A stretch of DNA of 64,000 bases, taken from Sphagnum compactum. Lineage: Eukaryota. Shown one piece after another: positions 26,881-41,000 of this stretch. Position 1 is the stretch's first letter. Every line of letters starts with the position of its first letter. A program made the translations under genes and the position numbers. The stretch lies in the NCBI GenBank assembly GCA_965153455.1, contig OZ234494.1, forward strand, positions 10,292,001 through 10,356,000, in the 5' to 3' direction. The notes below the pieces were generated by a model that was not told the DNA's origin, ran no database searches, and was given only the letters and a program-made list of their open reading frames with translations.

Positions 26881-27060
26881 AAACCAACCACCATGTAACT
26901 CAATTGGTCATGGAATGCCCAATTCAGCTCAAACCAACCACCATGGAGCTCACATTGATTCAAATCAGCCATGGAAATGCCTAATTCAGCTCAAACCAAC
27001 CACCATGGAGCTCACATTAACTCAAATCAGCCATGGAAATGCCCAATTTAGTTCAAACCA
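26881..27060 (+). repeat. ~62-bp tandem repeat, ~3 copies, inside the hAT element
   Basis: aaaccaaccaccatg recurs at 26881, 26931 and 26993, with a partial copy at 27054. Confidence 0.8.
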
Positions 27061-27599
27061 AGAGGTTGTACAAACCATTTTCAACAAGGTTATAAGCAAG
27101 GCAATCAATCTAGATAAGTGTGTGGCCATGGGTGTTGTTATCCAAGGTAGAATTCTGTGAAGTGATGTTAAGGACATTCTTCAACATGCCTCATCATGCT
27201 TAACATTATTATCCCCACCAAAAATAATCAAGAGTTTTCAATAGCCAATGGGCAATCCCAGCTTGGTGTGAAGTGCAAAGGTATATAAAAAAAAAATGAA
27301 ATGGTAGTTGACAACAAAAATTTTGGGCAATTTGAGGTTGAAGGTATCCCATATCCCCCCATTACCTTGTGGAATTGTTACATTTGACAAAGTTGCCAAT
27401 GGCATTGTAAATGTTTTTGTTTAAAATAAAGCAACCGTGAAAAGATAAATTATCACAATATAATCACCAAAAGGTATGTCACATGTCAGAAGCAAACAAC
27501 TAGAAAATGGTGAGGGATATAAAACATCACCCCCAAACATATCTAAAGCATAAACAAGCAATGGATGCAAAAAATGAGATTGACAACACATTCTACTAG

Positions 27600-27970
27600 A
27601 AAACTCAGCCATTGAACCAAAAAATCAATCACAAAAATGCATCTCACAAGGACAAATTCACTAATTAATGAAAGTTCAACCATTGAACCAAAAAATTAAC
27701 CATGAAAATGCATCTCAAAAGGAAGAATTCACCCATGGAAATTGAACCCATTGAAATAAAAAACTAACCATGGAAATGCATCTCAAAAGGAAGAATTCAC
27801 CCATGGAAATTGAACCCATTGAAATAAAAAACTAACCATGGAAATGCATCTCAAAAAGAAGAATTCACCCATGGAAATTGAACCCATTGAACAAGAAAAT
27901 CAAATGTGGAAATAAATATCTCAAGGAGGAATTCACACTTGTAAAATCCAGCCATTGAACCAAAAATTTC
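27600..27970 (+). repeat. 68-bp tandem repeat, ~5 copies, inside the hAT element
   Basis: gaagaattcacccatggaaattgaacccattga at 27722, 27790 and 27858, with decayed flanking copies. Confidence 0.85.
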
Positions 27971-28699
27971 AATAATTGAATAAATTTAAAACTAGCATGT
28001 TCAACCATTGAATATTTGGGAAGTTTAGCAATTGGAAAAAAACCAACCATGGAGGAAATTGGAAATCAAGTGTCTCAAATCCGGCCATTAAATAAATTAG
28101 ACATAACACAATCACCTCTAGACAAAAAAGAAACCTATTCTAGTAGAATATTTTGCTATAGAACCACTAAAAGACTTGAATTTTAGCTGTCGTGACAAGT
28201 AATATGTGAGATCATGTTTATAGACACAACTGAAAGTTCTAAAATATCAACAAAAATAACATCATCAACAAACAACATAACGTCCGCAAATGTAATTGCA
28301 ATTATTGGAGTAAAATCATGCACTAAAGGTCCAAAAACTTACCTCATTTTCACCAGGGTATTCAATTTGCAGGGGTTCAAACCAAAATCCACACATGCCT
28401 TTTCCCACAAATTTCAAATTTACCTTCCCTTGCTAGATTTCTTTGGCCATGTGATAAACTTTTGGATGTCAACCCTAGTGATGACATTCTTCATTTTGCA
28501 CATTAAAATTCCTTAAAATTCTTCATTTAGCACCTTGTCGAAACATTCTTGACCCGCGAATGTTTACCAAATTACACTGGTTGATCTATAAAATTCGTTA
28601 AAATTCTCGCTTCTTTGGGCTTCCATAACATTCTCGCACCAAGAATGTCATAACTATGATGTCAACCTAAGCATATTTGATTGATGCATAATGTAATAT

Positions 28700-29700: not shown

Positions 29701-30920
29701 CAACACCTCCTATGTTAGAAAGTCGTCAATGTCAAAATTAGATAAACCTTCATGTTCCATTCCCATATTGACAATGCTACTACTGCTAACATAACTTGCA
29801 AAGCACCTAGAAACACATAGCATGTTAAAAAGATTAACACTAATGCTAGTAGGAGCTGAAGAACCCATGGCAAAAAACTTAAGAAAAGGAAAGGTGAGAT
29901 TGATAAATTGCCAAGAGCGATCAAAAGAACTCTAGCAAATGAAATAGCACTAGGAGAAGATGACATGATGACCTATAGTAGACAACAAAAACCTTTTTAA
30001 CTCATCACTTTTGGAATCCAAAAAACAAAAAAACATAAATTGCAAGTTATAGTAGAAGACATGAAACATGAAATAAAAGACATTGAGCATAGATAACAAA
30101 AAGTAGAGGTTGAATGAGGGGGAAAAAAAAAAGTACGTCACCTTTGTCCATATCCATGCAAACCATCTTGAATAAATGTGTCAAAGTGTAAACAAAAGTG
30201 GTAATGTCTTCTTGCCATTTTGAGGTCAAATTCAAGGAGGAAGATTGTGACAAGCTTTCTCCATTGTCGTGATGGAAATTTGAACTCAACAATTGCAAAT
30301 TACAAACCCTAATCCTCACAACAAAAACACAAGGTTTTCTAATTCCACTATGGGTTTCAATTAGAAAATCAAAGGTATTTAATTCCACTAATGTCGGGTT
30401 ACAAACAAAGAACCTCAGGTATTTGAATCAGAAATGCGTCAGGTTTTTGGCAAAAAACCTTGTCAACTTTTTGGACTTAGGTCAAAAGCAAAGTTGGGGG
30501 TTAAAAATCTAAATGCCAAGTTGAAAGTGGACGCAAGTTTTTTTTTCGACAATTGTCAAGTCAAAGGTGAAGTCGAGGTTTCACGAACTTAAAACCAGAG
30601 GTTATATACCCATTTATTTAATCTAAAAACTAACAAAGAACCAAGTGTGTTTTAAAAACCGCGCAACATTGGAAAAGACCAAGTATTGGTATAAATTATT
30701 GGTTCAAACTTGACACAAAGTGTGAATGACTTTTGAAGTATTATGTGTGGATCTAATGGATGGGCATGTTCCATAAAAGTGCATGCATTTACATGAGGAA
30801 TTTTTCAATTGATGACGAAATTTTTTAATATGAAGTTTGAACATACCCATCAAGGGCAAAGTCATTATTCAATAAATTGTTTGTTCTTCATGTAATTTCA
30901 TCCCATATGTTTTGTTAAAT

Positions 30921-31235
30921 TGTCATGCCTGTATGCATGGCCTCATACATGATAGCCGGTTACGGGCATGCCAATCATGTTTTTAGGGTTAATGTACGTT
31001 CTTAGGTTATTGTGTGCTATTAGGTGTTTTAGGGTTATGACTTGTTTAAGGTTTCAACTTTGTTGATGGTTGTATAAAAGGTCAAGCTCATCCTTTCTCT
31101 TGTCAGTTTTTCTACAATTCCTTTGTTAGGGAGAGTTTCCTCCATAGTCAGACTGGATTTTTAGATGTTCACGGCGACTATTACATGGCCATCATTTACA
31201 TACACTACGTTTTCTTTCCTTCTTTTTGATTCAAT
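30921..31235 (+). repeat. Repeat A1 (contains TATA at 31073)
   Basis: Aligns with 37526-37858 throughout, with an ~18-bp indel. Confidence 0.95.
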
Positions 31236-31237
31236 TC

Positions 31238-31248
31238 TAGAAAAATTG
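31238..31248 (+). promoter_or_regulatory. Putative self-priming PBS of the split-repeat element
   Basis: TAGAAAAATTG pairs with CAGTTTTTCTA (31104-31114, 31 nt after the TATA start) with one G:U pair. Confidence 0.6.
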
Positions 31249-32174
31249 CTCTCTATTGCTTAATGTTGAAAATGACAAATTATTCCTAGCTTTGAATTTC
31301 TTGGGTTTCTTTTGCTTATTGGTTTCTAGTGTTCTTGAGTTGTTACTACTTCTTCTTCTTTTTCTACTCTTGTACTGCAGCTACAATAGGTTCTTTGACT
31401 CCCCAAAATTAGAGGCTTTCTTCTCCCAGTATAAGCTACAAGTTGTGAAGTTCTGAGTTCCGAAACTTCGGAAGGGGGAAGGAGTGAGCAACTCCAAAGC
31501 TTGTTTTATTGCTAGCTTTAGGTCTTGGGAGCACGTACACACACACACACATAAGGTTTGATTGCAGTACAAGATCTGCACCACTCATGCAACCCCACAT
31601 ACACTTGCTTTCCTTGTATATGGGTTTTGAGGTTAGCATCTAGGCTGTGCACTCTTGTGTGTTTTTGAGCTTGCAGTCATGTAACGAGTTGCCCTTGTAG
31701 CAGCTCTGGAAGAAGAAGAAGAAAATTTTTAAAAACAACACAAAGTAGAAGAAAAAAATTTCTCTCTTTTCTTCTGCACACCATCGTTACAGAGCTTGTG
31801 GACGCAAATCGCTCTGTAGCATCATCGCCATCCATCGTTGTCGCCATTCATCATAGTTTCGTTCGACATTTGTCACAGTTCTGTTCGACATTCATCACAG
31901 TTTCATTCGATGCCCATCACCTTTTGTTCGACGTCCGTCAATGTCCGTCCGTTCGATTTCGTCCCCATGGTTCCGTCCGTCTGGCCCCTTTCGTCCATCG
32001 ACATCCGTCCACAGACGTGTGTCCATCAATGTCCGTCCGTCACTGTTCATCCCCGTCGACATGTTGTATTCTTCAAATCATATGTACTGCGTACATACGT
32101 ATCCGATACCATATTTTTCAAACCGTATCTAGTGCCCTGTATTCCTACAAAATTTTAGGGCATGGGACAACAAC

Positions 32175-33905
32175 ATGTCCTCTGATGATGAGAACACTAT
32201 TGCTCAGCCAGAGCCAAGGTATCAACTACGAAGCAACACACAATCATTTGAGCCGATTTTTTTGAACTCACAATCTTCACAATCGTACCATCAAGCGTTT
32301 ACAGCGCCACCGTCATCCAGTACACCTCCTACCAGGAACTCAGGTTTAGGTAACACTACATCAATGGTACATCATAATCCATTTGGAAGGGTTAATTAGT
32401 GGGGTACGCCTACTACCGCACCAGCTTTCACACCATCATCATATATTTCGTTGTAAGCCGTTACCTCTACACCCATATACACCATGGAGGTCGATAGTTC
32501 CTTTGGGAGAATTGAGAAGTTCAGTGGAAGGCCAGGTACTATTTCTTTGAGGGAATTCAAGGCAACTTTTTCAATTGTGGTTTATGAATTGGAGTTCAAG
32601 TATGGCGCTAATTACACTAAGGCGTTCGCATTCAAATAATCGGCCCATTATGTGCATTATGAGGCATTGGATGTCTACAAGCAACATTCTCTCAGGATTT
32701 TGGGCGTCACCCAGATCCCCAATCTAACTTATGCCACAGCCATTGCCACCGCCTCTCAAGCTGCATTACAAGCTACCATTGCACATCATGGGATTATGCC
32801 CAATAATCTAGATCCGGTACCTACTTCAATAAATCTTTCTCCTCAACAATTCATTGTTGCTATCGCAAACATTCCTCCCATCATCGATGCACCAGCTTTT
32901 GTTGATCCAGCGGGGGAATTCTTTTGAAATCTTGAGCTGGAATTTCCGGTTAAGAGTTCTGAAAAAATTCTTTACCTTGCCACCTTCTCTCAACAAAATG
33001 ATGAAACCTTCAAGATGCTCTATAGGAGGCTTCTCAAGCTTAAAGAGGATACTTAGAGCATCACTAACCTAGAAGCTGCATATTAGTATCTTCGTTCATT
33101 GGAAGGTATTTCGACACTCTATGCGCAGGTTTTGCAACGGGTTTTTTGTAGAATTTGGAGACTCGTACACTTTGCTAGATGTGTACAACAATTCTGACAA
33201 GCTGGAACTGGCTCATGCACATTATGAGGCCAGTACTATGAGGCCTCCATCACGTTCAAGGCCTCAGCCTCCACCAGCTACGCCAACCAGATCATCACAT
33301 TCTTTTTCAAGGGTTAAAGCAGTGCACTCAGCTACACCCTACCTTCTTGCAACTACTGTGGCAATCTTGCCCACAAAGCTAGTGAGTGCAACATTCTTTC
33401 CGAGGATCTCTTTTGTGATTATTGTGGAAAAGAGGGACATCAGGAAGTTGTTTGTTTTGCCAAGTTCCTAGAACAAAAGTAACTCTGATTACCACGGCAA
33501 AATTTGCCAACATCTTTCGTTGCCCCTCAACCAAAAGCCAAGGCACCTCAGCCTTCCACTCAGGTTTTCCCCACCAAGGGTAGTTCTAGTAAGAATGCTA
33601 AGAAGAAGGAGCACAATGCTGACAAGAGGGAGGTGCTTCAAGCCCATGCTGCTCAAGTTCAAACTCTACAAAATGAACTCGAATCATTGAGGGCCCAACT
33701 TGCTAATCTAAAAGGCAAGTCTTCCCAACCAGCTAGTCATGCCCAACCTGTACAAGGTTCAGGATCAAGGGAAGGACCTCCTAGGTCGTTCTTTGGCCTC
33801 TCACATGATGCCGTGGCTGGGGAGTATGTTTTTTCCAATATGCACAATGGACCAAGCCTGGTGTATCGTCATGCTTCAGCCACTTGGGACGAACCCAGCC
33901 CATAA
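32175..33905 (+). pseudogene. gag: gag-like ORF with two CCHC zinc knuckles, disrupted
   Basis: EKFSG motif near 32515; CNYCGNLAHKASEC and CDYCGKEGHQEVVC at ~33345-33460; stops and frameshifts. Confidence 0.75.
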
Positions 33906-34339
33906 GAAAGAGATAAGGCTATGGGGTTCCAAACTGGCACTACTAATTAGACCAAGGTGACTAGATTGGAATGTAACGCTCTATTGGGGAGAGGCATGGA
34001 CCTGAACTCCCTTACATGGTTGTTGGTAACCTGTGTACTTTTTCAAATGTACACAACACCAGTACTGATTCAATCAGCTTGCAGTTCTCGCGATGCAACT
34101 ACATGGGCACCCCGACCATTTACACTTTCTATCTTCAACACTCTACACTTCACTCTTAGTGTTGGGGGGGAGGAGGTACCATGTTGTTTTTGATACACCT
34201 AGAGGTACATCAGCTTTTGGAGAAACAATTACAACCTTCTATGAATTTGTGCAGTTGGATAATGGAGAACCCAATACACCAAGTTTTTCAAACACATTTT
34301 CCAACTCCATTCCATGTGTTTCCAACTACCCTTTCATTA

Positions 34340-37302
34340 TGGGGAACCAGCTCACCAAGAAGGAGAAAGACCAGGTCACAAACTTGCTAATTAAGTATGA
34401 GAATATGTTCGCATTCTCAATGAAAGACTTAGGTAGGTGTAAGACCATGCAATTCTCTATAGACCTTACAGATGAGACACCCATCTATCGAAGGAGGTGT
34501 AGGTTGAGCAAGCATGAGTGGGAACACGTAGATGAAAAATACAAAGAGCTCCATGAGGCTGGTCTCATTCAGCCATCAAAATCTGATTTCGCAGCCATTA
34601 CAATAATGCCAACAAAGAAGGATTCAACTGGATTATGGATTGAGAAAAGGATGTGCGGGGATTATAGGCCTTTGAACTTGGTTACACCTTAGGATAAGTA
34701 CCCCATGCCCATCCCTGAAGAACTGTTTGATAGCATTGGAAACTCAAACATCTTCACAATTGTGGATTTGAGGCAAGGCTTCAACTAGATTGTGCTCGCT
34801 GCGAAGGATTACAAGAAAACGACATTCCATGGAAGCAATAAGTTGTGGGAATGGCTTATGATGCCTTTTGGATTGAAGAATGCACATGTCTTCTTTCAGC
34901 AAGTCATGGACCAAATTCTTGAAGGGGTAAATTTCCTAAAGTGCTACATAGATGACGTCCTAGTGCATAGCAAGGGACTCCTACAGGACTTGGCTCATCT
35001 TGAGGAATTATTCAAGAGGCTCCACGAAGTCAATATGAAGATCCATCCTAAAAAGTGTGAGTTTGTTGTCACCTCAGTAGTCTACCTTGGACACAAAATT
35101 TTGCCAAATGGTATTATGGCTCATTGGGCCAAAGTAGCCATTTTGGAGATGCCCAATCCTACTGATGTTCACACTTTGAGGAGCTTCATCGGACTATGTA
35201 ATTACTACAGGATTTATGTCCAAGACTTCAGTACTATTGCTCATCCTTTCTATGCATTGTCAAAGAAGGATGTTGCTTGGACATGGAATGAAGAGGCTCA
35301 GGAAGCTTTCAACACACTCAAGGAAAAGCTTTCAGAGTTCCCCATTCTAAAAAGACCTGATTTCAACAAGGTCTTCATTCTACACACTAACTGGAGTGCT
35401 CTTGGTATTGGTGTTATTCTTGGCCAACTTGATGAGAAAGGCAAAGAATATGTTATCGCCTATGCATCCCGAAGCAATAACAAGGCTGAGAGCAACTACT
35501 CTTCATACGAAGGGGAATGTCTTGCTGTTGTATGGGCCATCATACATTTCGGGCCCTATTTTTATGGCACCAAGTTCACTTTGTATACCGACCACTAGCC
35601 TATCAAGTGGTTGATGACCAACGACAAGCTTATTGGTAAGTTAGCTCGTTGGCGTTTATATTTCAGGATTATGAGTTCAAGGTTATTCATCAACCTGGTA
35701 TTACACATCAGAACGCGGATACCATGTCGCAGAGACCCCTCACTACCTCTGAAGATTTCTTAGAAGCCAGGCAAGACTTCGACCACATTCGAGCAATACA
35801 TGTATCTTATGCATCTAGTTATCTTGCACTACTGCAATGTAACCTGGTTGAACATCCCTTTGTGGATATATGGGAAGACTTGGACACTCTAAGGTTTTTT
35901 CAACGTGGGGAATATCCTCCCCAAGTTACGTCAAATCATCGGGATCACATATAACAACGATCCAAACGCTACTCATGGAGGGACAATCACCTCATCCAAT
36001 GCTTACCACAAGGTGACAGAGTGGTTTCTTCACCACATGAACGGCTTGGTCTTATTCAGAAGGTACACTCGGAGCTTGGAGTTAGGTGTACTTATAGCCT
36101 TCTCGCTCCTCATTATCATTGGAAAGGTATGTATGCTCAAGTTCGAGACGTCATTGCTAGGTGTGCACAATGTGATAGAGTGATAATTTCCTTTTCCTCT
36201 CGACAGCTCATGCTTTCTCCACTCCCTATTCAAGGCATGTTCTATCCCTGGTCATGTGATTTAGCTAGAAAGTTACCACAGACCTCCAGGGGTAATGTCT
36301 ACATCATGATTATGATTTAGCATTTTTCAAAGTGGGTTGAGCTTGTTGCGCTGCCGGACAAGTCATCACACAACACTAGCCATGCTTTCTTACAACAGGT
36401 GCTAAGTAGGTTTGGGGCTTGTGCTGAGTGCCTTACTAATCAAGGATCAGAATTTAGAGAAGAATTCCAAGACGTACTTAATCATGCTCTCATTGACCAT
36501 CGCCAAACTTCAAGGGATCATCCCAAGCTGATGGCCTTGCAGAGAGGATGGTTCAGACATGTAAAAAGGGACTTCGAAGGATTTGCCTCATTGGGAACAA
36601 AGAGGATTGGGACGTGGCCCTACCTTACATCGCCATGGGTACAGGATGTCCAAACACGCCTCTTTGTCTCATTTTGCTCCTTACTTTCTACATTTTGGGA
36701 GACATCCCATTCCACCTTCTTCCATTACTGCTCAAATGGACCAAGTTATGGACTTGGACTCCCCAGTCGCTTGGGTTAGGGTCATCGCAGAGAGGGTTGC
36801 TCTATTCAGGAAGGTTATGTTCATGGCCATGGAAAACTTGTCCATTGCACTGCATCGAGACACCTTACGATATGCACACACACAAGGTGGCAGTTATAAA
36901 CCTAAGGTGAGACAATTTGATGTTGGTGGCTTTGTGTATCTTTAGCAGCAACCTAATGATACTCTAGACACTTCTTTCGGTCGCACTATTTTGAGGATTA
37001 AAGCGATCAGGCCTTCAGGTGTGTTAGAGTTGCAAGGAGCTAATGGACGCACAATTCGGGATCACTCCAAAAACTATGCGCCTTGCCACCTCCCGAACTT
37101 GGATCCTACCATCATCACGTCAACTTGGACTCCTCCATTCAACTATCCATGTCAGGTATGTCAAAGGACAAACAATGCTGATCAGATGCTATTTTGTGAT
37201 AATTGTAATGGTGGATACCATCTATTCTGCCTCAAGCCGGAGCTCATTCAAGTTCCCACCGGCATTTGGTACTGTTCATCATGTTTTCTTGCAGCACCTT
37301 GA
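34340..37302 (+). pseudogene. pol: pol: RT, RNase H, DDE integrase and C-terminal PHD finger, disrupted
   Basis: RMCGDYRPLN, MPFGLKNA and YIDD; LHTNWS and EGECLAVVWA; VHSELG..CAQC; WSCDLA, LTNQG and ERMVQT; PHD CQVC..MLFCDNC..YHLFC..WYCSSC. Confidence 0.92.
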
Positions 37303-37342
37303 TTTTTACTCAAACCATGCCACGCTTTTCCCAGCTTAGGTC

Positions 37343-37350
37343 AGGGGGGA
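37343..37350 (+). promoter_or_regulatory. Polypurine tract directly upstream of repeat B1
   Basis: AGGGGGGA abuts ATACATGAG at 37351. Confidence 0.7.
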
Positions 37351-37523
37351 ATACATGAGAATTTCATTTCAGCCTCCTCTTGTGCATTGTATACATGTGT
37401 GTGCATCTTTTTTTGGTTGATTAGTTTCTACCTTTGACTGGTTTTAATCTTTTTGTTCAGTAAAATTTACTATGGATTTACACCCTTACGACACCGTACA
37501 TCACGACACTACACGTCACGATA
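37351..37523 (+). repeat. Repeat B1
   Basis: Aligns with 37859-38032. Confidence 0.95.
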
Positions 37524-37525
37524 GC

Positions 37526-37858
37526 TGTCATGCCCATATGCATGGCCTCATACATGACGGCTGGTTATGGGCATGCCAATTATGCCTTTAGGGTTAATGT
37601 ACGCTCTTAAGGTTGATGTACTTCTTAGGTTAATGTGTGTTACTAGGTGTTTTAGGGTTATGGCTTGTTTAAGGTTTTAGCTTTATTGATGGTTGTATAA
37701 AAGGCTAAGGTCATCCCTTCTCTTGTTAGTTTTTCTATAATTCCTTTGTCAGGGAGAGTTTCCTCCATAGTTAGACTGGATTACTAGATGCTCACAACGG
37801 CTATTACACGGCCATCATTTACATACACTACGTTTTCTTTCCTTCTTTTCGATTCAAT
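37526..37858 (+). repeat. Repeat A2
   Basis: Aligns with 30921-31235; separated from B1 by the dinucleotide GC. Confidence 0.95.
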
Positions 37859-38032
37859 ATACATGAGAATTTCATTTCAACCTCCTCTTGTGCATTATAT
37901 ATATGTGCGTGCATCTCTTTTTGGTTGATTAGTTTATACCTTTGACTAGTTTTAGTTTTTTTGTTCAGTAGAATTTTATTATGGATTTACACCCTTACGA
38001 CACCGTATGTCACGACACTACACGTCATGACA
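37859..38032 (+). repeat. Repeat B2 (right terminus)
   Basis: Copy of B1 ending CATGACA, followed by the TSD AAAT. Confidence 0.95.
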
Positions 38033-41000
38033 AAATGTTTTTAATGTTATATTCACAATTCCTATTTTATTTTATTTTGTAAGATATGGTTTGTGGTTGG
38101 AACCTAATTTAATGTGAATGAGATTTAAATTATTTTGTGTGCTTAGGGTTTATCTTAAATGTGTGGTTTTGTAGTCTAAAAATTTCAAAACACATAGAAA
38201 GAATATGAGGTGTGGTTGACCTCAAGGTTTGTTGATTTTTTATGTTTTACTTTGAATTTGGATTCTTGTAACTACACGTCTACATTTTGTAATGCAAAAG
38301 ATGAATTTCATTTTTCAATGCTAGAACTAGATTAATTTGTGTTCAAACATTGGTATTTGTGTTTGAAACAAATGTGTTGCAACTAGGGGTGGGAGTTGAT
38401 GTAAAACAAATTATTGATCTATTGAAGAAGCTTCACATGTGAAAGTTTTGATTTTGGGGTGATTTTCCATGAATCAACATTTAAAATATTAAACTTCAAA
38501 TAGGGCCTAACATATATCAAAAGGCATATCACATGATCAAATGTCTTCAAGCACATAGGGATTGTGTACCATAGAAAAGTAGGGTTGTGAAGCAAGTACA
38601 CCATCAAATGACCACCATCACTATTTATTATGGAACTTGGGGGTGGTTGACAACAAATGAACATGGATCACCATCATCAATTGATGTAAAACTCAATTGC
38701 AAGGTGGTTCAATTGTTGCAGATTGAGGTTGAAAGGACATTGCATCCAACTTATGATTGTCATGGCATTAAAAGCTTGAATTACCATTGCCATGGCACAA
38801 GAACATGGAACCCTTGCTACAACTTGCCCATGGTTGTGAATTTTTTAAGGCAATGCACTTTTGTTCAAAACTTTTGAGTTCAAGCACAAGCTAAATTGCA
38901 ACTTGGGAACATCTCGAACTTCAAATCCTATATAATAAAATTGGGATTTGAATTTCATGAATATTGGGTAATTTTCAAGGGTTGGAAATGGTTACAATAT
39001 GGTGGTGGGATTGGTGTCAAGTCATGTGTGTAGAAACTTACAATGGCCATTGATGGTGCCCATCAATATCACACTAGTCCTTCAAGGTTTTTCCAAACTT
39101 CAAAGCACCAAGGGTTCACAAGGTTTAAATGTCACACTCTATATCACAAGCTTGATTTTTGTCTTATGATTTTCATCCACAAATTGTAGGCACGAACATC
39201 AATAAGTTGGATGATTGTTGGCAAATGTTCAAACAAATTTGACCTTATGCGTATATCAAGTAGCTAGTTGGTGAATGAAGGTTGGTAACCAACCATAGTT
39301 TGGAGCATATAAATTTGGTTTTATTACTAAATGTATCATGGACATTTCTAATATTGTGATATTTTCCTATTCAATGATACGATATGACATTTTTTTGTGT
39401 ACATCATAATTTGCATTCACCCTATCCAAATATTTAATAAGTATCATAAAGATACCACTAAAGAAAAAGATTTTAGCCCCAATATAAAAAAACAGCAAGA
39501 GGTTTAATTTTGAAATTTGGATTCAATTTGGAAATTCATTGTAGTCCTTCATATAAGGTTAAATTCACACCTTTTTTATGCCATTGGATTCTTGAAAAAA
39601 ATTGTGCATGTGGCAAAAATGAATAATGTTTAAACTATAATTTTTTGGAGGTTATTCACAAGCGCAAAAAATGGGTGGAGTTAGTGCACAACAATTTGTC
39701 AATTCAACAATCAAACATCCATGTGGGTAAACATTACTTACTATTCTCACATGTTAAAAGGAATGTTACTCCATCAATAGACATGGAAATTCACTCCATT
39801 AACTTTTTCTTTTTCTTTGATAGCTTGTTGTAATATGTCAAAAAATGAAGGGTAATAATATCCATGCTAGTTGTTTAATTATTATGTGATTCCCCCACTA
39901 TTGTTTGTTGAGTTATATGCATGTGCTTCCTATCATTATGTTGGTTGGGCTATTGTTTCTTTTTAGGAAGTAAAGGGATTTATTAAGTTGTGTCTCATTG
40001 ACCTACAACTTTGAATAAAAACATGTTATGGAGTTGATAACTTGGTAGTGTGTGATTATTGTGTAAGATGAGAGAAACCCAAGGTGAAAGGTTACAAACC
40101 TTCCCATTTGTGTTAATTGTCATAATGAACTTGAAGAATTATAATTGGACCTTGATGTGATTCATAATCAAACATGGGACAAGGCTAACAACCAATTCAA
40201 ACCATTATGTAGGTCCTACTTGTCATGGGCATGAAAACTACCACAACAATGAAATTTCCAAAATACACAAAACATGTCTAAATCTAAATTTAGCCATCAA
40301 ATATGATATTCAAAGATAAATACACAAGGTGTGCAACAAAAAGGTTAAAATGAAAATTTATTATGATAAAATAGGAAAACATGAACACGCATTAGAAGGA
40401 GATGATGCCTAATTCACCATATAATTTATTACGTTGTGTAGTGAATTAGGTAGACTTTTGTCACACTAGAAGCAACCTTTTGCCTATTAATCAATGACCA
40501 ATATGATCACTATGGACATGTTATAATCATTACACATGAATAGAATTTGGCTGTTTGAATTAAGGATAAGGTTTAAATTTATGGGGCATAATGTATGTGA
40601 ACTTGAAAATGGTACAACTCACCATCCTTAGAAGGATGTGTTCAAAGTTTTGAAAAAAACAACTTAGACCACAAGGTCATTAGAGATTTTTCAAAAAAAT
40701 TAACATTTTTGTGATTTCCTTTGGGGGAAGGGAGGATGATATTGATGACCCTAGATCCATTAGAGATCAAATTTCAAAAAACAAGTGGGCATTGTTTTGT
40801 CCTAAAAATGGAAGTTACATTTCAAGACATGAATGTGGGCCAAAAGGTTAAAGAATTTGAAATTTAACACTCTCTTGGGCCTATTTCCTTGGTCATGACT
40901 TAGCAAAAGACCTTTTCAATGGCATATCACACATTCCAATTGGAGCTTATTTGACCCTTTCATTAAACATTTTAGTGATGAAAAATTGAATTGCCAATTC

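Follow-up and report, generated by a model that had tools for sequence, protein, structure and literature searches.

LTR retrotransposons and retroviruses are taught to integrate a linear DNA through both of its ends, circles being regarded as dead ends, and the usual processed end of retroviral DNA is a CA-3'OH recessed by 2 nt. Elements of the DIRS order are not known to make a target-site duplication on insertion. In the DNA transposons of the IS3/IS30/IS911 type, abutted inverted ends with a short fixed spacer form the transposase substrate; there, the circle is excised from the donor and no reverse transcription takes part.

Several described systems approach the element reported here. 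De Mendoza et al. (2018; PMC5890265) described KnitGypsy-Dnmt3 of Klebsormidium nitens, which combines Gypsy domains and a DNMT3 in Pol with DIRS-type repeats, and a 2026 preprint (bioRxiv 10.64898/2026.05.21.726589) mentions "Gypsy-DNMT3" of streptophytes in passing. A template-completion role has been proposed for the internal repeats of DIRS/Ngaro/PAT-type elements. Self-priming was predicted for the Tcn1 clade of moss chromoviruses by Neumann et al. in 2019 (PMC6317226). Furthermore, foamy-virus and HIV-1 integrases are reported to cleave palindromes of abutted LTR ends (PMC1180852, PMC1905944). In the open literature, supplements aside, the repeat layout treated here was found on a Gypsy element only in PMC5890265, and the mechanism, the spacer and the duplications were found nowhere. 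The layout on a Gypsy element is thus already in print; the mechanism that we infer below is new to that literature and testable.

We analysed a 64-kb stretch of moss DNA (the window). Repeat finding and BLAST within the window delimited four repeat blocks, A1, A2, B1 and B2, and detected no second copy of the element there. Positions 30921-38032 hold a dead Ty3/gypsy-type element in the order A1-coding-B1-gc-A2-B2 (Table 1). This copy is old and broken, with an A1/A2 p-distance of 0.105, many stops and frameshifts, and a 2.25-kb deletion. The initial annotation had described a head-to-head junction inside the element, a GC spacer absent from the outer ends and three terminal repeats in B, and each description is accurate. 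The junction reads tcacgata (37516-37523), gc (37524-37525) and tgtcatg (37526-37532), continuing tgtcatgcccatatgcatgg; a decayed copy of the right end here abuts a copy of the left end. Both outer ends are flanked by AAAT, not by the spacer, and the y-acga-y-a repeats recur in B1 with a period of 15 nt (ttacgaca at 37486, tcacgaca at 37501 and tcacgata at 37516).

Table 1 Features of the element in the window
Feature	Position	Strand	Remark
Left target-site duplication AAAT	30917..30920	.	identical to 38033-38036
A1, left terminal repeat, begins tgtcatg, without B after it	30921..31235	+	85% identical to A2
TATAAAA box inside A1	31073..31079	+	conserved in 8/9 A1 copies
Putative transcript start and self-primer, agtttttctaca in window, AGTTTTTCTAGA in relatives	31105..31116	+	32 nt past TATA-box start
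Putative primer binding site (self-priming), tctagaaaaatt in window, TCTAGAAAAACT in relatives	31236..31247	+	adjoins A end
Subfamily-specific leader, low copy compared with rest of element	31248..32100	+	contig depth table
Decayed internal region	32101..37342	+	broken frames, domain matches
2.25-kb deletion	near 33837/33847		takes out protease-to-DNMT part present in relatives
RT/RNase H	34789-35598	+	domain matches
Integrase zinc finger (H2C2)	35955-36320	+	domain match
Integrase core (rve)	36321-36779	+	domain match
PHD finger, C-terminal	in ORF 36946-37302	+	PF00628, E 1.5e-12
Polypurine tract agggggga	37343..37350	+	abuts B1
B1, internal copy of right terminal repeat, ends cacgata	37351..37523	+	91% identical to B2
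2-nt spacer gc	37524..37525	.	window palindrome decayed to ataGCtgt; acaGCtgt in relatives
A2, internal copy of left terminal repeat, starts tgtcatg	37526..37858	+	85% identical to A1
A2/B2 joint, ..ttcaat/atacatgag..	37858..37859	.	A end (as before primer site) joined to B start (as after polypurine tract)
B2, right terminal repeat, ends catgaca	37859..38032	+	91% identical to B1
Right target-site duplication AAAT	38033..38036	.	same as left

Subsequently, the element was compared with its relatives. Metagenome contigs were scanned with an alignment of the PHD end, which gave 515 relatives; the 80 best were retained as loci L001-L080. BLAST was used to place A, B and three internal pieces on these loci, and each boundary was read. 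The coding end was present in 81 units: 33 were of type 1 (B-NN-A-B), 41 were of type 2, five had an interrupted or cut B, and two had no B. Type 2 denotes A-X-B in which B is directly followed by unrelated DNA. Judged by their flanks, the distinct insertions number 27 of type 1 and 35 of type 2, plus the window copy.

Conservation of a fixed 2-bp spacer across the family had been set beforehand as a check on the junction. The spacer was 2 nt long in all 33 type-1 units of the 80 loci and in the window (GC 14, AC 10, GT 5, AT 3, AA 1), and no indel was seen at the spacer in the type-1 units compared. The variants differ from GC by transitions only, save AA in one copy (L070). A single insertion seen at three loci carries GC in L034 and L036 and AC in L050. 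The usual B end in the relatives is CACGACA, and the window's B1 (cacgata) and B2 (catgaca) are both decayed by transitions; B1 had rightly been called a decayed right end, but the form CATGACA assumed to be its undecayed state is itself decayed. Since CACGACA is the usual B end, the ancestral junction is reconstructed as ...CACGACA-GC-TGTCATG..., centred on the 8-bp palindrome ACAGCTGT. Contigs of two plant DNA runs (X1 and X8) also contain this joint, the spacer being GC, GT or AT, and one contig shows B end-NN-B start. The recurrence of the junction is far beyond chance. This bears on the view that the junction is a one-off accident (a shortened 5' LTR together with the relic of an LTR-LTR junction) or a misassembly, functionless in either case, which would be in keeping with the age and breakage of the window copy. 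The same layout in 33 units from 80 metagenome loci, with differing flanks and duplications, and in contigs of other runs refutes this view, to which we attach hardly any credence; the layout has also been reported for a charophyte element (PMC5890265).

The outer ends of the relatives were read in the same way. Nine 5' ends were readable (window, L020, L026, L042, L054, L056, L059, L070 and L079), and in all nine, conserved TCTAGAAAAA-type sequence, in no case B, comes after A. A canonical A+B LTR element that had lost its 5' B was rejected on these nine ends together with the family layout. It had been anticipated that insertion ends of other copies would map to the junction, and they did: unrelated DNA precedes TGTCATG in all eight readable 5' ends with an intact A start, and the 41 type-2 units stop exactly at CACGACA, after which unrelated DNA follows. 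Furthermore, an exact 4-bp duplication flanks five of the eight two-ended copies (window, L026, L042, L070 and L079, with AAAT, TTTT, CCAA, ATGT and CATT among them); three of the five are type 1 and two are type 2 (L026 and L042). The duplication matches at three of four bases in L020 and L056, and there is no match in L059. Because the junction halves, the type-2 ends, the 5' ends and the duplications coincide, we conclude from this comparison that the A start and the B end are the termini used for insertion, by an enzyme that would make 4-bp staggered cuts.

The coding capacity was examined by domain matches. The Pol order RVT_1, RT_RNaseH_2, Integrase_H2C2 and rve on 34789-36779 is of the Ty3/gypsy type with a DDE integrase, and the integrase C-terminus carries a PHD finger and no chromodomain. 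As to the other marks of Ty3/gypsy elements, TG...CA termini with a short duplication are present (TGTCATG...CACGACA, 4 bp), and two identical LTRs round an internal region are not found in the integrated copies. A putative primer site and a putative polypurine tract are both present, but they bracket B-NN-A and not A-B. For the PHD end, the closest named proteins come from Sphagnum magellanicum, at 81-84% identity, and from Calypogeia fissa, a liverwort, at 73%, and most of the remaining matches are metagenome proteins. A peat moss, or a plant closely related to one, is the likely source of the window on these matches. A scan of prokaryote genome contigs with the PHD C-terminus pattern gave 113 matches, none of which was a relative. 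A search for further relatives returned distant relatives, among them natural ORFs of 1707-1990 aa such as P0075-P0078, and copia-type matches from Closterium. In four of the 22 ORFs scanned (L070, L059, L022 and L042), a C5 cytosine methyltransferase domain lies between protease and RT (PF00145, E 5e-5 to 2e-10), and the best solved matches of this domain are DNMT3A, 3C and 3B. The window copy lacks this DNMT part through its 2.25-kb deletion.

The contigs of three DNA runs contain very many copies of the family, and 31301-32101 is far less repeated than the rest; BLAST over the 80 loci found likeness to the leader (31248..32100) in L043, L053 and L056 only. In one RNA run (X21, about 12 in 100 read), 103 reads matched, all less than 95% alike and only at 30500-31834 and 37709-37975, and none fell on the coding part. 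We class the element with the Gypsy-DNMT3 kind bearing DIRS-type repeats, as a new and decayed member.

The identical split direct repeat layout would also suit a DIRS/Ngaro-type route, in which a tyrosine recombinase integrates the circle at the B/A junction. No Phage_integrase match was found in 33 translated ORFs or in the precomputed domains of the intact distant relatives P0075-P0078, whereas rve and H2C2 are present. The copies also bear 4-bp target duplications, which tyrosine recombination is, to our knowledge, not known to generate. We therefore consider this route extremely improbable.

The sites at which reverse transcription may be primed were also read from the sequences. A G-run, mostly of 6-12 G, stands directly before the B start ATACATGAG in 74 of the 78 units with B after the coding end. 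In the exceptions, gata intervenes in L039 and three runs are interrupted. In four units, the B start reads ACATGAG/TACATGAG. The position of the G-run is that of a polypurine tract, i.e. a putative plus-strand origin. A plus-strand primer site right before A2 was rejected, as the local sequence is not purine-rich. For the minus strand, AGTTTTTCTAGA, located 32 nt after the first base of the TATA box, is the exact reverse complement of TCTAGAAAAACT, which follows the A end of A1. The complement is exact over 12 nt in L020 and L059 (reached by 0-1 of 2000 shuffles), over 10 nt in L042, L070 and L079 (7-12 of 2000) and, with the position unchanged, over 8 nt in the window and L056 (151-169 of 2000). 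In L026 and L054, it is broken by transitions and the best exact match sits at another place (592 and 95 of 2000). Across the nine copies, transitions have brought the complementarity down to 7-8 exact bases in four. The complement looks like the signature of Tf1/Tcn1-type self-priming and would mark the predicted transcript start. A host tRNA may serve as the primer instead of the transcript's own 5' end; a tRNA gene search that covered the window and 31 of the 80 loci gave none.

On these positions, the transcript would start within A, some 32 nt past the TATA box, its first 12 nt would pair with the site right after A1, and plus-strand synthesis would start at the G-run directly before B1. 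Ordinary strand transfers would then yield a linear DNA flanked by B-NN-A LTRs, with the B start as left and the A end as right terminus, because the promoter and the primer site belong to A and the plus-strand origin precedes B. Each LTR of the reverse transcript would hold ACA-GC-TGT mid-way. Genomic copies with the ends B start and A end were not found among the copies examined. The suggestion that the internal place of the junction preserves both ends during transcription fits the positions of the promoter, the primer site and the polypurine tract.

The second joint of the element, A2/B2 (..TTCAAT/ATACATGAG..), corresponds to a fusion of the predicted right end with the predicted left end. 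Its length is exact in 20 of the 28 distinct type-1 copies, and the other eight insertions show indels: +T twice, +TCA twice, +A twice, -1 and -7. The background is 0.0072 indel events per site per copy (1050 columns, the same 25 sequences). The two +TCA copies are not sisters, and the close relatives L004, L052 and L047, which are 4.8-6.3% apart, show three different joint states. Further joint variants were seen in the contigs of the DNA runs. The primer site starts with T and TC, and carry-over of its bases would be expected at retroviral circle junctions. The indels +T, +A and -1 could possibly be later slippage in an A/T-rich context. A2/B2 most likely represents a true joint of reverse-transcript ends, as judged from these comparisons. 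The term "circle junction", which the initial annotation had applied to B1-gc-A2, hence has to be divided: B1-gc-A2 holds up as the probable attachment site, lying within the predicted LTR of the reverse transcript and not at joined cDNA ends, and the circle junction in the retroviral sense is most likely A2/B2 at 37858/37859.

The relation between the repeats of single copies was also examined. A1 is nearest or near-nearest to its own A2 (ranks 1, 1, 2, 4 and 4 of 29). For B1, its own B2 is nearest in five of 25 copies, where chance would give about 0.5, a weak test given the shortness of B and the age of the copies. B1 and B2 are not told apart by any alignment column. Because A1 lies near its own A2 and B1 near its own B2, and no column separates B1 from B2, the repeats appear to be remade from one template at each transposition, in the manner of LTRs.

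Taken together, we judge it somewhat likelier true than false that the junction constitutes the attachment site of a Ty3/gypsy-type retrotransposon integrated as a circular permutation of its reverse transcript. The A end and the B start of the cDNA would be joined in the manner of a 2-LTR circle, and the circle would read (B-NN-A)(B-NN-A)-primer site-X-polypurine tract. The DDE integrase would then cut after CA on both strands of one palindrome, leaving recessed CA-3'OH ends with 2-nt 5' overhangs, which would be a normal strand-transfer substrate. Opening at the NN of the LTR preceding the primer site would give exactly A-X-B-NN-A-B, i.e. type 1. The repeat R would stand at both transcript ends in type 1 alone: A occurs twice in no other form, so that the terminal repeat for the first strand transfer would be confined to type-1 transcripts. 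Type 2 would result from 1-LTR circles, from cuts at both palindromes or from a later B1 x B2 deletion, and such copies would be dead ends. The model draws on the fixed spacer, the exact termini, the 4-bp duplications, the G-run, the self-primer, the A2/B2 indels, the remade repeats, the rve/H2C2 domains and the retroviral precedent, and that rve and H2C2 are encoded counts for cutting by an integrase. All copies examined are decayed, and the model rests on sequence comparison. The comparative evidence accordingly favours the initial annotation's idea of an internal integrase substrate as regards the site, and cleavage of the palindrome is the part that we infer.

Several points count against the circle model. 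Among them are the possible slippage at A2/B2, the weakened primer complementarity in part of the copies, the chance of tRNA priming and the lack of reads on the coding part in the RNA run. Random cutting of a 2-LTR circle at either palindrome predicts the mirror product A-B-NN-A-X-B to be as common as type 1, and it occurs in none of the nine readable 5' ends, a small sample. The contig with B end-NN-B start lies outside the predictions of the model. End joining needed in each productive cycle would also be unusual.

The lack of the mirror product suits another explanation, in which the junction is a template and not a substrate: B1-NN-A2 would store both ends, truncated cDNA ends would be completed by extra template switches, the resulting linear DNA from A start to B end would be integrated ordinarily, and the spacer would be the two trimmed bases. 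The layout is exactly the split direct repeats A1...B1 A2 B2 of tyrosine-recombinase retrotransposons (PMC6681497, PMC4157794, PMC5890265), and the A2/B2 joints of exact length also speak for a template. Renewal of the repeats in each cycle fits as well, though it fits the circle model equally. However, the polypurine tract before B1 and the primer site after A1 lead to ends at the B start and the A end, and no series of template switches could be derived that would stop exactly at the A start and at the B end. The excess of A2/B2 indels and the differing joint states in close relatives also fit end joining better. Hence, we regard the template explanation as rather unlikely.

The abundance of type 2 raises one more alternative, in which only linear DNA takes part: the integrase would nick the internal half-sites of linear B-NN-A cDNA and the host would remove the flaps, so that type 2 is the normal product and type 1 arises occasionally from joined molecules. 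Type 2 is indeed commoner, both in units (41 of 81) and in distinct insertions (35 against 27 plus the window), and the type-2 copies L026 and L042 have exact 4-bp duplications. Yet type 2 lacks the second A, leaving its transcript no terminal repeat for the first strand transfer, and a family mostly of type 2 could not reach the copy numbers seen unless type 1 replicates. Type 2 is equally explained by B1 x B2 deletion, the repeats being 174 nt long and about 335 nt apart. Consequently, we consider the linear-only alternative improbable.

What is observed is a high-copy family that joins an ordinary DDE integrase with the repeat layout of tyrosine-recombinase elements, and this layout cannot arise by end-wise integration of the DNA predicted from the element's own primer sites. 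If the integrase cuts the palindrome, the family would offer an example from nature of integration that requires a joined or circular reverse transcript as its substrate. The layout noted in 2018, which the passages on the element in PMC5890265 leave unexplained, would then be accounted for, and split direct repeats would be suggested to be a mechanical outcome of circle integration, not the mark of one enzyme family. The presence of a DNMT3 methyltransferase and a PHD finger together with an integrase bears on how transposons read and write host chromatin. For the broader proposition, belief falls slightly short of doubt: that a Gypsy lineage of streptophytes, with DNMT3 and a PHD-integrase, passes obligatorily through joined or circular cDNA, that its DDE integrase acts like a restriction enzyme at a palindromic CA-NN-TG in mid-LTR, that its productive copies are circular permutations and that its split direct repeats arose independently.

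The element was finally compared with the known systems. KnitGypsy-Dnmt3 shares the Gypsy domains with DIRS-type repeats, and the relatives of the window element share its DNMT3-like domain; this likeness is drawn from the published description of that element, and the host is a charophyte there and a moss here. The passages of PMC5890265 on the element give no PHD finger, duplications, 2-nt spacer, self-priming or mechanism. Ngaro, PAT-like and VIPER elements likewise have A1 at the 5' side and B1-A2-B2 at the 3' side, and their internal B1-A2 holds full copies of the termini (PMC6681497, PMC4157794); as described there, they use a tyrosine recombinase, whereas the moss element has a DDE integrase with H2C2 and 4-bp duplications. 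With Tf1/sushi and Tcn1 elements, the latter clade occurring in mosses, it shares a stretch near the predicted transcript start complementary to the site after the upstream repeat (PMC6317226, PMC2864245), read here from sequence; those elements are described with a chromodomain and ordinary LTRs, in contrast to the PHD finger found here. The parallel to IS3/IS30 elements drawn by the initial annotation proved formal only: IS3, IS30 and IS911 are DNA transposons and resemble the moss element by arrangement alone. Closer precedents are the DIRS/Ngaro repeats, Gypsy-DNMT3 (PMC5890265) and the retroviral cleavage of palindromes (PMC1180852, PMC1905944). In the 2-LTR circles of foamy virus and HIV-1, a DDE integrase is likewise described to cut an internal palindrome of abutted ends and to generate processed linear ends. 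In those reports, however, the palindrome is formed from joined cDNA ends and its cleavage is an optional by-path, whereas in the model proposed here, the palindrome, with its 2-nt spacer, would pre-exist in each LTR and its cutting would be obligatory.

The right terminal repeat next to the coding region, B1, was found to be 15 nt shorter in three related metagenome copies (L016, L048:2364-2929, and L066), all of which lacked one of the subterminal repeats spaced at 15 nt. The terminal CACGACA/CACAACA was retained in these copies, and in the two that are of type 1, in which the coding end is followed by B-NN-A-B, the 2-nt spacer was still located directly after the short B1. When a contig of the sequencing run X1 was matched to the window, another junction was observed, namely B-NN-B without A, in which the B end was followed by 2 nt and then by the B start (joint 38027 to 37351). 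This arrangement is predicted by none of the models considered. At L048:2364-5516, two 3' portions of the element family lie in the same orientation about 1 kb apart, each reading coding end-B-NN-A-B; the pair may reflect either a partial tandem or the nesting of one insertion in another.

Upstream of the element, two tandem arrays were located. Contigs of the runs X1 and X13 ended at 30785, suggesting that the 135 nt adjoining the left side of the element (30786-30920) also belong to a genomic repeat. In the poly(A) RNA run X21, reads were aligned only at 31301-31834, a stretch which includes an (AC)n run at approximately 31537-31552. The likeness of these reads was below 95%, their loose ends were long, and the first mate was on the minus strand in most of them; their source is probably a related sequence at another place rather than the window copy.

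In relatives of the element, a DNMT3-like C5 cytosine methyltransferase domain is placed between the protease and RT, and its top matches among solved structures were DNMT3A/3C/3B. The window copy lacks this domain because of a 2.25-kb deletion near 33837/33847. In the distant intact relative P0075, a single protein of 1707 aa unites DNMT, RT, RNase H, integrase, and PHD. Another, P0076, is a Gypsy polyprotein of 1974 aa that also contains a PHD finger, and a public record assigns it to a Minisyncoccia bacterium genome bin; eukaryotic contamination of the bin is the most likely explanation.

Locations of DNMT3-like domains and upstream tandem arrays
Feature	Location	Family
DNMT3-like domain	L070:5923-6486	PF00145
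DNMT3-like domain	L059:3439-4443	PF00145
DNMT3-like domain	L022:14-778	PF00145
DNMT3-like domain	L042:5355-6074	PF00145
Tandem array, about six copies of 68-nt unit	window 27599-28009	
Tandem array, two copies of 62-nt unit	window 26914-27037	

The PHD finger forms the C-terminal end of the integrase (36946-37302). It was kept in all 22 aligned relatives, in most of which the zinc-binding Cys/His columns were intact. Chromoviruses carry a chromodomain at the integrase end, whereas the window element has the PHD finger in that place.
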